DNA of 64,000 nt from Bryobacterales bacterium (GCA_963747945.1 CAVVHB010000018.1:224868-288867); one strand, 5' to 3'; shown: positions 24,025-46,168, numbered from the stretch's first letter. The notes: generated from the letters alone by a model not told the origin. Made by a program: numbers and translations.

Positions 24025-25314
24025 CTATGCCAGCCTGACAGGGTAAATCACCTTTTCGTCCTGCGGCTGATCTAGTTTCATCCGGAGCATCCTGGGGTTG
24101 GTTTTGCTCTCAGTCAGGCCCCCCTGGCGGAATGCTCCCAGATCAGATGCACATTTCTCGGCCAGCGTGATCAGGCTTTCGGCTACCAGGCTATCGGGCT
24201 GAAACGCGATCAGCGGCGTGTGGGCGAGCGCGGCCCCGAGACAAATGTCTGGTTCCGGCGGAACTACGCCGAGAGCGGAAAATCCAAGCAGAGTTTCGAT
24301 TTCCGGCAGGGGCATCGGGCAATTCGGCGCTGCGCGGTTCACCAGAATCATCTGGATGGGCTGTGGCATGCCATCCCACTCCTTGATGGCCTGGGTCATC
24401 AGCTTGGCCGATTGCACGCACACCGGATCCCGCTCCACCACCAAAACCAGGCGGCTGGAAACTTCGGCCGCCGCACGGTTGGCGTCCGACAACCAGGCCG
24501 GAAGATCCAGTACGACGTAGTCCGCCAGCCCAGCCAGCAATTTAACCAAGGATTTCACGCGCGCGGGCGCAAGGTCTCCGCACTCGGCGGCCCTTTGCGG
24601 ACCGAACAAGACGCTCAATCCGGGAACATTCTTGCAGGGCCACAGACAAGCGCCCGCTTCCGTTGGTTCGATTTCCGCCGCGTCGGCTCGCAGCAGATGT
24701 GAGATATTTCGAACTTGCCCGTAGGGTTTCAGGTACGGCAACAAGGTTCCAAAGGCGGGCCGCAGTTCCGCGAGAATCACCTTACTGTCCCGGGCCAGAA
24801 CCGAAGCCACATTGAGAGCCACCGTGGTGGCGCCCACCCCTCCCTTTGCGCCAATGAATGAGATGGTGCCGCGCTCCGGCCGCGACCCAAACCCGATCGA
24901 GTTTCGGGAGCCGGACTGCCGGCGCGCGAATTCCACGGCCGAACAAATGGCGCGGTTCATTGCCTGGCTGGACTCTTTCTTGAGCAGGCAATCGGCGGCT
25001 CCGGCGCGCATCGCTTGCAGCGCGAGTCCCTCATCGTGAGCGTCGTACAAGACGATAATCGGGACCCGCGGGGCGGCCCGCTGCACCGGCAGAAAGCCGG
25101 CTAGAGCATCCCTGGACCGCCCATCCGGCAACGAGAGGTCCAGCAGGATAACGTCCACGCCACCCCCTCCGATTCGGGCCAGCGCGATGGACATGCCTGC
25201 GACACATTGGAGCTGGAAGGCGCCACCCCCGCACTGGGCCAGAGACTGACGGATCAGGGCGGCCTCCGCGGGGTCTTTCTCAATCAGGAGCACGAATGGA
25301 TTGTGGCCGTCCAT
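24025..25314 (-). CDS. receiver domain fused to a TadZ/CpaE-like (MinD/ParA superfamily) ATPase
   Basis: 429 aa. The N-terminal REC domain has FVLLIEKDP...VDVILLDLSLPDG. The variant deviant Walker A is GAKGGVGATT. Its start codon directly abuts the stop of the upstream paralog. Confidence 0.8.
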   Translation of the reverse strand: MDGHNPFVLLIEKDPAEAALIRQSLAQCGGGAFQLQCVAGMSIALARIGGGGVDVILLDLSLPDGRSRDALAGFLPVQRAAPRVPIIVLYDAHDEGLALQAMRAGAADCLLKKESSQAMNRAICSAVEFARRQSGSRNSIGFGSRPERGTISFIGAKGGVGATTVALNVASVLARDSKVILAELRPAFGTLLPYLKPYGQVRNISHLLRADAAEIEPTEAGACLWPCKNVPGLSVLFGPQRAAECGDLAPARVKSLVKLLAGLADYVVLDLPAWLSDANRAAAEVSSRLVLVVERDPVCVQSAKLMTQAIKEWDGMPQPIQMILVNRAAPNCPMPLPEIETLLGFSALGVVPPEPDICLGAALAHTPLIAFQPDSLVAESLITLAEKCASDLGAFRQGGLTESKTNPRMLRMKLDQPQDEKVIYPVRLA

Positions 25315-26580
25315 CTAGAGGTTCTCCGCCGGCGAAGGGTGGGGGGCCGCGTTAGCCGCCTTTTCAATCTTCTTGGCGGAACGTTTTTCGGAAAACGAGA
25401 AAATTCGCGAAACTCTGCTCCTCGGCTGCTCGGTTTGAAGCTTGGCCATTTTCCGGGACAAATCCGCCATCCGCAGGCGGAAGCCGCTGTTTTTTCCGGG
25501 GAGTCCTCTTTGCACGCAGGCCTCGTGCAGGTCCTGTCCAGCCGGCGCAAACGTGGCGTAAACCGGCAGTCCGAACAGACGCTGCAGCTCGCTTTCGGGC
25601 ATGTCCTCGTAATTGGAAAACTGATTTACAATCATCCTGATTCGGTCGCCTTGGAAGCCCGCTGCCCGCAAGCCGTCAATGGCCCGCTTGGTTTCATAAA
25701 GCGAAGGAACGGCGGTGCTGGTGACTAAGAACACCTCGGTGAGTTTATCCAGCAGCTCGAAAGAGAAACGGGACGGCGTCCCCAGGTCCACCACCACCCA
25801 GCGATACAGTTGCTGGGCTATGGTGAGCACCTGATGAAGATTTTCCATGGCCGGCACGCTGGTGCCCGGGATACTGGGAGAACGTAAGACTTCCAGGCCG
25901 CCGGGATAGTGGCCGACCAGACCTCCCCAAAACGACGCATCCAGCCGGTCGAGATTCCCCGCGGCGTCCAGAACCGTATATTCCGTTTCCGCGTTCATCA
26001 GGAACCCAACCATGCCGCAGTCCAGATCCATATCCACCAGCAACGTTTCCCGCTCCGTTTGCCGGCGTAATTCGACGGCCAGGTTGCAAGCGATAGTGGT
26101 GGCGCCCACGCCTCCCTTCACGCCCATAATGCCCACCAACGCGGCTTGTTCGAAAGCGGAGCCGGCCTTGGCGGCCGTGCGGCTGGCATTTCTTACCACG
26201 GCATATTGAATCGCTTTGGCCAGGGATTCGCCGTTGCACGAGCTCTTGACCAGGTAATCCTGCGCGCCCTCCTGCACCAGTCGAAGCGCCAGCTGTTCGC
26301 TATCTTCCCCGCTCAGCAGGATCACCGGCACTCCGGCTGCGTGCAGTTTGGTTCTTCCATACGTGTCGGCTCCACTGCTATCCGGCAGCCCGAGATCGAG
26401 CAGAATTACGTCCACGCCGCCCTGCTTCAAGCGGTACAGGCCGGCCTGCAAAGAATCGGTCCAGTGCAGAACAAAGGCGATTTCAGTCCTCACCGAAAGC
26501 CATTGCTGAACCAGCGCGGCATAGTCGGGACTGTCTTCGATCAGTAGAACCGTCAGAGTCTTGTGCATTTGCGGTGACAT
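25315..26580 (-). CDS. receiver domain fused to a TadZ/CpaE-like ATPase (paralog 2)
   Basis: The start was trimmed to the ATG at 26580 (MSPQMHKTLTVLLIEDSPDY); an alternative ATG lies at 26568. The REC domain has VDVILLDLGLPDSSG and the Walker A is GVKGGVGATT. Confidence 0.8.
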   Translation of the reverse strand: MSPQMHKTLTVLLIEDSPDYAALVQQWLSVRTEIAFVLHWTDSLQAGLYRLKQGGVDVILLDLGLPDSSGADTYGRTKLHAAGVPVILLSGEDSEQLALRLVQEGAQDYLVKSSCNGESLAKAIQYAVVRNASRTAAKAGSAFEQAALVGIMGVKGGVGATTIACNLAVELRRQTERETLLVDMDLDCGMVGFLMNAETEYTVLDAAGNLDRLDASFWGGLVGHYPGGLEVLRSPSIPGTSVPAMENLHQVLTIAQQLYRWVVVDLGTPSRFSFELLDKLTEVFLVTSTAVPSLYETKRAIDGLRAAGFQGDRIRMIVNQFSNYEDMPESELQRLFGLPVYATFAPAGQDLHEACVQRGLPGKNSGFRLRMADLSRKMAKLQTEQPRSRVSRIFSFSEKRSAKKIEKAANAAPHPSPAENL

Positions 26581-26691
26581 TCGCCGTGAACATTTCTCAT
26601 CGGCTATTTCGTCGACACAAACATAGACCCGATGGAATAGCCGGTTGTATAGTCCCGTCGAATCGCTTGGAATGCACAGTTTTCTTCCCGT

Positions 26692-45024: not shown

Positions 45025-45564
45025 TTATCTGCGGAGCGTCGCCTCGAACGCGACGTTGCTTTCAATGGGTCCGGCTGGTGTGGAGACCGGAACCTCCATA
45101 TCCAGCCGGTGCTCACCGAGCGACCCGCAGGGCATGGACTCCACCAAAGGCCGCGGCTCGGTCCCCAGCTTGATTCCGTCAATCGTCAGGGCGTGCGTCG
45201 CGGCCCCGTCCGTCCGTGACATGGTCACGCTCACCTGGGAAGATGACGAACCTCCCGGACAGTCGACTTTTAGGATGAACCGCGTCGAGATTACCAACGA
45301 TCCGTGGGTTTTCTTGCTGCTCTCGCCCGGAGCCGAAGCTCCCCTGAAATACGAAACCCGGCCCAGATCCAGGGCGGAGTTGCCTGGCCCCTCGCTGCGC
45401 ACCAACCCACCGGTTGGCGCCGAGAGGATCGTGACGATCGGCGCCGCGGTGACAGACATCGGTGACAGCGTTCGCCGCTCGCCAGACGCCTGCCCGAATG
45501 CCGGCCCATTCACAAGCGGCGCCAGCATCCACAACGAGAATAAAGTCATCTGTTGAGCGTTCAT
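45025..45564 (-). CDS. secreted beta-rich minor fibre-subunit candidate
   Basis: 179 aa. The signal peptide is MTLFSLWMLAPLVNGPAFGQ. The protein is Ser/Thr/Gly-rich with two Cys. It sits between the major-subunit-like and chaperone-like genes. Confidence 0.55.
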   Translation of the reverse strand: MNAQQMTLFSLWMLAPLVNGPAFGQASGERRTLSPMSVTAAPIVTILSAPTGGLVRSEGPGNSALDLGRVSYFRGASAPGESSKKTHGSLVISTRFILKVDCPGGSSSSQVSVTMSRTDGAATHALTIDGIKLGTEPRPLVESMPCGSLGEHRLDMEVPVSTPAGPIESNVAFEATLRR

Positions 45565-45634
45565 AGGAAGTCCAGACTGACTGGGAGTCGCTTCGGCCCA
45601 GCCAGTATTCGCGCGTTGCTCTGTGCGGCCGGTA

Positions 45635-46168
45635 TTAGTTAGCGGTCGCGGTGAAGTTGAGAGAGTTGGTCAGCGAACCGCTGGTATTGGAGGCCGGTAT
45701 TGTGACGGCGAAATTGTAAGGCGTCGCGGTCCCATAAGAGGCGAGAGTTACTTGAGGTGTAACGCCGGCGGCCGTAACAGCGATAGCATTGAACGACCAT
45801 GAGTTGACGATGTCGGCCGTGCCGAGGTTCGCAAGCAGGCCAAAAGTGGTACTGGTGCTATTCGCCACATCCACTTCAACGTTCACTGGCGTGGTGAGAG
45901 TAAACGATGTTGTCCCGGTGAGCGTCCGGGTTACGTTGGTCGGCACCGTGCCGCCGTACATCTGCACGTTTCCAAACGGCAGGGATGCCGTCCCCGTGCC
46001 GGTGCCAGTTACCGCGAAACCGCCGGTGGCGGTGGAAAAGAGGAGGTTGATGGAACCCTCGATGTCGGCGGTGACGCCCAAGGTTCCCCCGCTAGTCACC
46101 TGGGCGTTCGCGACTCCGGCGAGTCCCAAAGCGGATATTACTGTCATAAGAACAAGTTTGTTTTTCAT
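45635..46168 (-). CDS. secreted Thr/Gly/Asn-rich beta-strand protein, major fibre-subunit candidate (spore-coat-U/Csu-like in style)
   Basis: The start was moved to the ATG at 46168 (MKNKLVLMTVISALGLAGVANAQ). The mature ~155 aa are Cys-free with alternating-pattern strands, ending ...SLTNSLNFTATAN. It is the first gene of the operon. Confidence 0.6.
   Translation of the reverse strand: MKNKLVLMTVISALGLAGVANAQVTSGGTLGVTADIEGSINLLFSTATGGFAVTGTGTGTASLPFGNVQMYGGTVPTNVTRTLTGTTSFTLTTPVNVEVDVANSTSTTFGLLANLGTADIVNSWSFNAIAVTAAGVTPQVTLASYGTATPYNFAVTIPASNTSGSLTNSLNFTATAN

Follow-up and report, generated by a model that had tools for sequence, protein, structure and literature searches.

The 64,000-nucleotide stretch of DNA analysed here (Bryobacterales bacterium, GCA_963747945.1, CAVVHB010000018.1:224868-288867; hereafter the window) carries a chemosensory (che) operon, and the question it raises is which kind of pathway this operon encodes and what that pathway controls. 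Chemosensory pathways that do not serve motility are common in genomes, and the outputs of only a handful are known; in Acidobacteria, which are dominant in soils, we know of essentially none that has been characterised. A preliminary description of the window had likened the cluster at 24025-46168 to the Pseudomonas Wsp pathway and had proposed a phosphorelay output controlling a neighbouring fibre-like operon. Based on its sequence, the locus is probably a Che3-type, non-motility chemosensory operon, of the type with an alternative cellular function (ACF), from an uncultured Bryobacterales acidobacterium. Our results partly support the preliminary description, which was right in kind (ACF, phosphorelay), imprecise in its comparison (Che3, not Wsp) and weak as to the target (the fibre).

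Searching the open reading frames (ORFs) of the region 24025-46168 with Pfam, we recovered every component that had been named, where it had been placed and with the domains assigned to it (Table 1). The che genes encode two CheW proteins, a CheR methyltransferase with a TPR tail, a single chemoreceptor (MCP), a CheA-CheW-REC hybrid kinase and CheB, in the order B-C-D-A-E-F of the Wsp nomenclature, as previously described; two large hybrid kinases, HK1 and HK2, follow. The CheR tail (190 aa, 28077-28646) matches TPR families only, below threshold in the window, and reaches the TPR_2 threshold in two orthologues. The MCP does have the CHASE3-type sensor attributed to it, with transmembrane segment TM1 at residues 8-27, CHASE3 at 38-175 and TM2 at 184-207, followed by HAMP and an MCPsignal domain of 281 aa, or ~40 heptads. 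CheA contains a single Hpt domain, with its histidine in the motif AHSLKG, no P2 domain and a terminal receiver (REC). From cheW1 to cheA the genes are joined by four 4-bp overlaps, a fifth lies between HK1 and HK2, and the remaining gaps are ≤ ~16 bp, as would be the case in a single operon from cheW1 to HK2. A scan for promoters and terminators gave counts no higher than in shuffled sequence.

The corrected CheA (see below) found its best matches among annotated replicons in Indioceanicola and Azospirillum, with 36-39% identity over the full length, Ralstonia WspE reaching 32%. The cluster of Azospirillum ramasamyi (L043) served as the Che3 reference and that of Ralstonia as the Wsp reference. 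The former reads CheW-CheR(TPR)-CheW-MCP-CheA(Hpt-HATPase-CheW-REC)-CheB, followed by a REC-REC protein and a hybrid kinase, so that the window shares with it the gene order, the REC-REC module after cheB and the presence of a hybrid kinase in the operon. Each core protein of the window also resembles its counterpart in this cluster more than that in Ralstonia Wsp. The MCP (residues 187-537, spanning TM2, HAMP and the signalling domain) is 53% identical to the Azospirillum Che3 receptor and 29% identical to that of Wsp, while CheR scores 263 bits against Che3 versus 108 bits against Wsp, and CheA 389 versus 265 bits. CheB is 50% identical to the Azospirillum copy over its full length, and residues 4-270 of HK1 are 31% identical to the REC-REC protein encoded after cheB. 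The Azospirillum cluster belongs to the MiST class ACF and is orthologous to the Che3 clusters of R. centenum, involved in cyst formation, and A. brasilense, involved in flocculation (PMC6943060, PMC8429497).

The likeness to Wsp holds for the composition, since both are non-motility ACF systems and both contain a single MCP, two CheW, a TPR-tailed CheR, a CheA-REC hybrid and a CheB. On the other hand, the MCP gene is the fourth here instead of the first, the sensor is CHASE3 instead of 4HB, and the sequence similarity is below that to Che3. The order B-C-D-A-E-F, which had appeared to be a departure from Wsp, is the order of Azospirillum Che3. The Ralstonia Wsp locus itself has the canonical order and ends in a REC-GGDEF gene, wspF being missing from its annotation table. 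We agree with the preliminary description that no WspR-type REC-GGDEF protein is present, the sole GGDEF protein of the cluster lacking both a receiver and an active site. Membership in Wsp was accordingly rejected: there is no WspR (the GGDEF protein carries the motif RWDGPVL and no receiver) and the gene order is not A-B-C-D-E-F-R.

Several points weigh against the Che3 assignment. The identities to Che3 proteins are modest (31-53%) and cross into another phylum, Acidobacteriota, and they were obtained with Azospirillum sequences. The ACF label is drawn from the nearest homologues and from architecture. In R. centenum, CheA3 phosphorylates REC1 of CheS3, whose architecture is REC-REC(Ala)-PAS-HWE kinase, and CheY3 is phosphorylated only by CheS3 (PMC3868531). 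In HK1, by contrast, REC-REC is joined directly to HisKA, CheS3's PAS domain and HWE-type kinase are both lacking, and each receiver has an acceptor Asp, for which reason the analogy with CheS3 is architectural only. In addition, no independent assembly of the same population spans 30.6-38.6 kb. Further differences from Che3 are the CHASE3 sensor, the extra kinase of 1056 aa, which contains PAS-PAS-GAF and a REC-Hpt relay of its own, and the added degenerate GGDEF protein, pseudo-REC/REC regulator and two REC-ParA ATPases.

We found that cheA, cheB, HK1 and HK2 appear in the window as ~25 overlapping ORF fragments. Their frameshifts had gone unnoticed in the preliminary description. Aligning the window with L004, a short-read assembly in which all genes are intact, and with L002 revealed a 6-kb patch of 25 indels found in the window only, with one extra base per ~277 bp. 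All 25 lie inside coding sequence; outside the patch, indels in coding sequence have lengths divisible by three. All four bases occur among the insertions, no motif is common to the sites, and 15 of the 22 single-base insertions have no identical neighbouring base. Once the insertions were removed and the two deletions padded, ORFs of 735, 357, 569 and 1056 aa without internal stops were obtained, and Pfam gave exactly the domain orders of the preliminary description. For the four broken genes these orders are valid only after correction or in orthologues. In the corrected sequences, CheB has its Ser, His and Asp residues, HK1 has the H-box AHEINNPL and an acceptor Asp in each receiver, and HK2 has the H-box SHEMRTP and both receiver Asp residues. 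The Hpt domain of HK2 matches Pfam below threshold (20.8 bits) and contains the motif HQFKG. L004 carries an intact HK1 orthologue of 568 aa, and the best database matches of HK2 are also 1056 aa long, at 89% identity.

These indels are very likely consensus errors of a long-read assembly, not pseudogenes, and the four genes would be intact in the organism, because an insertion-only burst without relaxed selection is unlike gene decay. Were they genuine, cheA, cheB and both kinases would be pseudogenes and the pathway dead. Such decay has on its side the 25 frame-breaking indels within 6 kb, which are also in the deposited record (a 290,712-bp contig with CheA split into 429 + 313 aa and CheB into 224 + 247 aa), and the Logan contigs from two samples (L001, L006, L007), which stop at ~30593 and resume at ~38637, i.e. 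~1.3 kb before and ~0.7 kb after the patch. However, bacterial gene decay is deletion-biased, whereas nearly all the indels are insertions. The window branch has no nonsense codons of its own, and its private changes show no excess of nonsynonymous substitutions (nonsynonymous/synonymous 94/193 in cheB, HK1 and HK2 vs 127/218 in the intact flanking genes; Fisher p = 0.31). Kinase boxes, catalytic residues and phosphoacceptors are all present after correction, and the neighbouring genes of this operon are undamaged. Furthermore, the genes are unbroken in the short-read assemblies L004, L008 and L012, while six loci of MFD metagenome-assembled genomes (MAGs; L009, L013, L016-L019), likely long-read assemblies as judged from their contig_N naming, are fragmented similarly at other positions. 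The Logan contig L001 matches the patch flanks at 99.95% without gaps. No same-population copy of the broken segment was found: matches to the corrected HK2 did not exceed 89% identity, and the deposited call P0128 for the large outer-membrane protein led to no contig. The verdict of an artefact is indirect, since the independent contigs stop on either side and the best HK2 match is at 89%; even so, we regard genuine decay as very improbable. It is yet more improbable, to the point of being negligible, that the locus is an ordinary chemotaxis operon for flagella or type IV pili. All core che genes are present, as they would be in such an operon, but Pfam found no CheY, CheZ, CheC, CheD or CheV within the che cluster, and none of the tested ORFs of the 64-kb window proved to be a flagellar, pilus or Tad gene, the rest of the genome being outside this view; the preliminary description had likewise seen no flagellar or Tad genes. 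CheR-TPR genes are found predominantly in ACF clusters, where ~40% of the associated regulators carry HisKA and HATPase, and multidomain response regulators and the CheR-TPR fusion are taken as ACF criteria (PMC3447774). Hallmarks of this kind in the window are its CheR-TPR, a CheA-REC that lacks P2 and REC-kinases encoded in the same operon; the best homologues belong to MiST-classified ACF clusters (PMC6943060), and the single Hpt of CheA is unlike the CheAs of the type IV pilus class (PMC10542144). These observations back the earlier proposal of a non-flagellar ACF pathway.

A programmed frameshift was also considered for the broken genes and ruled out by the 25 scattered sites without a shared motif. 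A codon-position GC frame plot, drawn to find further patches in the window, carried too much noise to be informative. As the 6-kb patch turns four genes into ~25 fragments in the deposited assembly, annotation-based surveys would miss or miscount the system.

The core of this Che3-type operon is conserved well beyond the window. Full-length homologues of CheA, 71-89% identical to it, make up more than 120 database clusters, and those with a name are Acidobacteriota. By scanning species-representative genomes we obtained 13 orthologous loci (L008-L020), of which 12 carry the label Bryobacterales, Bryobacteraceae or Solibacteraceae and one (L011) that of Terriglobia only. The many metagenomic homologues indicate that the system is widespread in Bryobacterales. 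The arrangement CheW-CheR-CheW-MCP-CheA-CheB-HK1-HK2 is kept in L002-L004, L009, L012, L013 and L016-L019, and in L008 and L010 as far as the contig extends; among loci long enough to show the core, L011 is the sole rearranged exception. In contrast, the accessory genes vary. The REC-ParA genes stand with the che operon in ~8 of the 13 loci, as a single gene in one case and in inverted orientation in another; genes for the degenerate GGDEF protein and the regulator occur often, yet some loci lack them or have them on the other strand, and past HK2 or the regulator the neighbours vary by lineage (AMP-binding enzyme, polymerase X, BshC, RND pump). Because these flanking and accessory genes differ between lineages, the conserved functional unit is the eight-gene core and not the 22-kb supercluster previously described.

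A few variations within these loci were also observed. Two contigs of one Bryobacteraceae MAG (JBGPSX01; L012 and L020) each carry an MCP-CheA junction of different sequence, and because they differ within a single MAG, some genomes probably hold paralogous copies of the operon. The C-terminus of CheW1 contains an in-frame 30-bp insertion (window 27214-27243) made of two 15-bp units (GGGAAATCCATGCCT / GGGGAAACCATGCCT), and in L004 a repeat insertion of 60 bp lies in the CheW2 gene, where the alignment places window position 29032.

How might the signal leave this Che3-type array? We propose that the CHASE3 transmembrane receptor, the two CheW proteins and CheA, with its terminal receiver and no P2, would form a complex, adapted by the TPR-tailed CheR and by CheB. 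Instead of a CheY acting on a motor, CheA~P would phosphorylate a receiver of HK1, and perhaps the N-terminal receiver of HK2, thereby switching their autokinase activity as CheA3 does with CheS3 in R. centenum, where CheA phosphorylates the receiver of the output kinase (PMC3868531). HK2 would contribute cytoplasmic PAS/GAF inputs and its own His-Asp-His relay to terminal receivers; within the cluster, the pseudo-REC/REC regulator or the two REC-ParA ATPases could serve as these. By analogy, a phosphorelay via receiver-containing kinases is the likely output, and the most likely cellular target would be a trait of the surface, of aggregation or of development. A phosphorelay in place of WspR, as the preliminary description had suggested, has a direct precedent in the CheA3-CheS3 pair of R. 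centenum (PMC3868531) and in the survey of CheR-TPR clusters (PMC3447774), and the eight tightly packed genes are conserved together. We infer each phosphotransfer step and the target, whereas the gene content, architecture, motifs, core conservation and closest homology to Azospirillum Che3 were observed.

In total, the cluster holds three kinases, two Hpt domains and ~nine canonical receivers, and it constitutes a defined set for the mapping of phosphotransfer. If the assignment is correct, the Che3 design, in which a CheA-REC signals to a receiver-kinase, extends to Acidobacteriota and is enlarged there by a second relay kinase and by receiver-ParA ATPases. What makes the system of interest is chiefly how abundant it is in a soil phylum that has been little studied, together with these unusual accessories.

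The GGDEF protein encoded after HK2 reads RWDGPVL where RxGGDEF would be expected, and HAGD where the I-site would have RxxD, confirming that its active site is degenerate, and an active diguanylate cyclase is thereby excluded. Its N-terminal 180 aa match no domain. The motif RWxGPxL/M is kept in 10 orthologues, down to 28% identity, which points to a conserved non-catalytic role. In L017 an HDOD-domain protein (19214-20077) is encoded between the regulator and the degenerate GGDEF gene, the latter lying there on the opposite strand; this is a further non-catalytic signalling domain of the cyclic di-GMP (c-di-GMP) type associated with the cluster. The stand-alone regulator was described as a double receiver, and it does contain one canonical REC. 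The likeness of its N-terminal half to a receiver is at the level of motifs: it matches the beta4-alpha5 part (RADDVVFSPY vs GADDYLAKPF), has IVW where VLD is expected, with Trp at the site of the acceptor Asp, and aligns to the protein's own receiver with a probability of only 22% in hhalign. Mainly by this motif correspondence, it is possibly a pseudo-receiver.

The two REC-ParA ATPases, encoded without a gap between them and divergently from the che operon, correspond to the TadZ-like pair of the preliminary description. Both combine a ParA/MinD-type ATPase with a receiver that Pfam recognises above threshold as a canonical Response_reg with its acceptor Asp (VILLDLSLPD in ATPase 1), and both have the Walker A motif KGGVGATT. 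The best ATPase-type NCBIfam matches of ATPase 1 are MinD, ParA, CpaE-homologue and BcsQ models, all far below cut-off, and the best PDB match of ATPase 2 is 3EA0, a ParA-family ATPase. Like TadZ/CpaE, the pair has a receiver-like N-terminus, a ParA/MinD ATPase and a Walker A of the form K-G-G-x-G-x-T without the P-loop lysine, which fits the TadZ consensus K/RGGxGxS/T (bioRxiv 10.64898/2026.07.08.737194). However, the TadZ receiver is atypical and not phosphorylated, while those found here are canonical, and no tad genes were detected in the window ORFs tested or in the related loci. TadZ membership was rejected because the receiver is canonical and a tad locus is lacking; judging from their motifs, these proteins are TadZ-like but not TadZ, and their receivers are apparently phosphorylatable.

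The fibre module, which is convergent with the regulator as previously described, consists of four genes running from 46168 to 41039. The AlphaFold2 model of its large outer-membrane protein, built from 40 homologues (pLDDT 78), comprises an N-terminal beta domain, a ~26-strand barrel, three sandwiches of the CarboxypepD_reg type, a linker and 3 TPRs. In Foldseek its top matches are FimD/PapC (E 8e-16 to 1e-11, TM-scores 0.19-0.36), other barrels scoring ~1e-7. The secreted Ig-like protein has weak matches only, to the fn3_5, HYDIN/VesB Ig, Cep192 and Motile_Sperm families; its single-sequence AlphaFold2 model was unusable (pLDDT 43.5), and PDB profile searches with it and with the two small secreted proteins found nothing. 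The small proteins A and B have no Pfam match at E up to 10, A also lacks an NCBIfam match, and no Pfam Usher, PapD or fimbrial family was detected in the module. The module resembles chaperone-usher systems in having two small secreted paralogues, a secreted Ig-like protein and, with FimD/PapC as its top structural matches, a large outer-membrane barrel that has terminal beta domains. It differs from them in the ~26 modelled strands, a helical insert instead of the beta-sandwich plug, the three CarboxypepD_reg domains, the C-terminal TPRs and the low TM-scores. We consider it plausible, from the modelled fold, that this is a divergent, putative chaperone-usher-like fibre system. The family of the large protein is a small one of 116 matches, the named ones from Bryobacteraceae or Paludibaculum; the module is apparently confined to Bryobacterales, its barrel having three CarboxypepD_reg domains and usually a C-terminal TPR.

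Does the Che3-type pathway act on this module? The preliminary description had the phosphorelay controlling fibre production. In a fuller form of this model, specific control of the production or placement of the fibre would run through the phosphorylatable REC-ParA ATPases or the regulator. The two are indeed juxtaposed in two different ways, the module being convergent with the regulator in the window, L002/L003, L004, L006/L007 and L016, and lying in L018 on the other side, 55 bp downstream of the single REC-ParA gene and on the same strand. The large protein is usher-like by fold, the TadZ-type motif of the REC-ParA pair also suits this proposal, and TadZ/CpaE and BcsQ-type ATPases are known to position envelope machines. 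Azospirillum Che3, moreover, affects flocculation, a surface trait (PMC6943060). On the other hand, the loci with the first arrangement are 86-89% identical in DNA and therefore represent roughly one lineage, and at least five orthologous che loci (L009, L012, L013, L017, L019) have no fibre gene within reach. Anchoring the search on the large protein gave three further contexts (L040, from Paludibaculum fermentans, L041 and L042), none with a che cluster or REC-ParA gene within 10 kb and two beside other two-component genes. The REC-ParA pair also follows the che operon and not the module. What stands of the claim is thus the adjacency in the genus-level clade of the window and, rearranged, in L018, and specific control of the fibre, although plausible, appears rather unlikely. 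Less likely again is the full chain in which, within one Bryobacterales clade, the Che3-type pathway, through a two-kinase relay and the TadZ-like REC-ParA proteins, would gate or position an undescribed chaperone-usher-like machine with an usher fused to TPR; if true, fibre assembly, and not transcription or c-di-GMP, would be the direct output of the chemosensory array. Any true link to the usher-like module would tie chemosensing to the assembly of a surface structure. We similarly find it improbable that the REC-ParA pair is no output at all and either positions or segregates the chemosensory array, as do ParC and PpfA, or belongs to an unrelated neighbouring system. ParA-like ATPases beside che operons position arrays in Vibrio and Rhodobacter, and the pair runs divergently from the che operon, which it accompanies in ~8 of 13 loci, but ParC and PpfA have the canonical P-loop KGGxGK[ST] and no receiver, the receptor here is transmembrane and not cytoplasmic, and several orthologous loci lack the pair.

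Away from the che cluster, the module of the cultured Paludibaculum fermentans (CP063849, L040) lies beside a REC-PAS-HisKA_3 kinase and a REC-GerE regulator (4683-6798), that of L042 beside Hpt, REC-PAS-kinase, REC-HDOD-HD and REC-HD_5 genes (874-7251), and that of L041 beside nothing obviously regulatory. Since the module often adjoins other two-component genes in this way, there are hints that it is generally under phospho-signalling control.

Table 1. Features of the cluster and the adjoining module; positions are those of the window unless a locus is named.
Feature	Position	Strand	Basis or remark
REC-ParA/MinD-type ATPase 1	24025-25314	-	Pfam Response_reg + AAA_31/CbiA/BcsQ
REC-ParA/MinD-type ATPase 2	25315-26580	-	Pfam Response_reg (65.7 bits) + CbiA; start as in L001/L004 gene calls
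CheW 1 (WspB position)	26722-27270	+	Pfam CheW, 81 bits; same gene call in the independent Logan contig L001
CheR methyltransferase with C-terminal TPR tail	27267-28649	+	Pfam CheR, 153 bits
CheW 2 (WspD position)	28646-29155	+	Pfam CheW, 94 bits; exact copy in L001
MCP, transmembrane chemoreceptor	29152-30765	+	Pfam and hydropathy scan
CheA hybrid kinase, Hpt-HATPase_c-CheW-REC	30762-32970	+	735 aa once one inserted base (31930) is removed; Pfam
CheB methylesterase, REC + CheB_methylest	32987-~34065	+	357 aa once 3 inserted bases are removed; Pfam
HK1, REC-REC-HisKA-HATPase_c	~34066-35781	+	569 aa after correction of ~10 indels; Pfam
HK2, REC-PAS-PAS-GAF-HisKA-HATPase_c-REC-Hpt	35778-38960	+	1056 aa after correction of ~11 indels; Pfam
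Indel patch	31930-37912	.	23 window-specific insertions (22 one-base, one two-base) and 2 one-base deletions; breaks cheA, cheB, HK1 and HK2
Degenerate GGDEF protein, no receiver	39102-40115	+	Pfam GGDEF, 38 bits; sequence
Stand-alone regulator, candidate pseudo-receiver + canonical REC, no output domain	40182-41006	+	Pfam REC at 143-254
Large outer-membrane protein, usher-like by fold, convergent with the regulator	41039-44224	-	Pfam; AlphaFold2; Foldseek; deposited call P0128, 1061 aa
Secreted Ig-like protein, candidate periplasmic chaperone	44196-45020	-	Signal-like N-terminus; weak family matches
Small secreted protein B, paralogue of A, candidate fibre subunit	45025-45564	-	Sequence comparison with protein A
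Small secreted Thr/Gly-rich protein A, first gene of the module, candidate major subunit	45635-46168	-	Sequence
Fibre module copies	L040 7917-13030; L041 8112-13081; L042 8077-12670; L018 267-4721		Module loci outside the window

The surroundings of the cluster are mostly metabolic. On its left lie a hydrolase gene and a quinohemoprotein amine dehydrogenase operon (15896-22326) encoding the alpha subunit, a radical-SAM maturase and the gamma subunit, with a 497-aa ORF without a Pfam match in the position of the beta subunit; this operon is unrelated to the signalling cluster. Further upstream, two long overlapping ORFs on the plus strand (13047-15235; 374 and 417 codons from stop to stop) have a coding-like composition and no Pfam match. 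On the right, genes for a DUF2490 protein, a small outer-membrane protein and a sulfatase were found, and at 52208-54413 (plus strand) a DUF3300 gene adjoins a DUF2950 gene, both of uncharacterised families.

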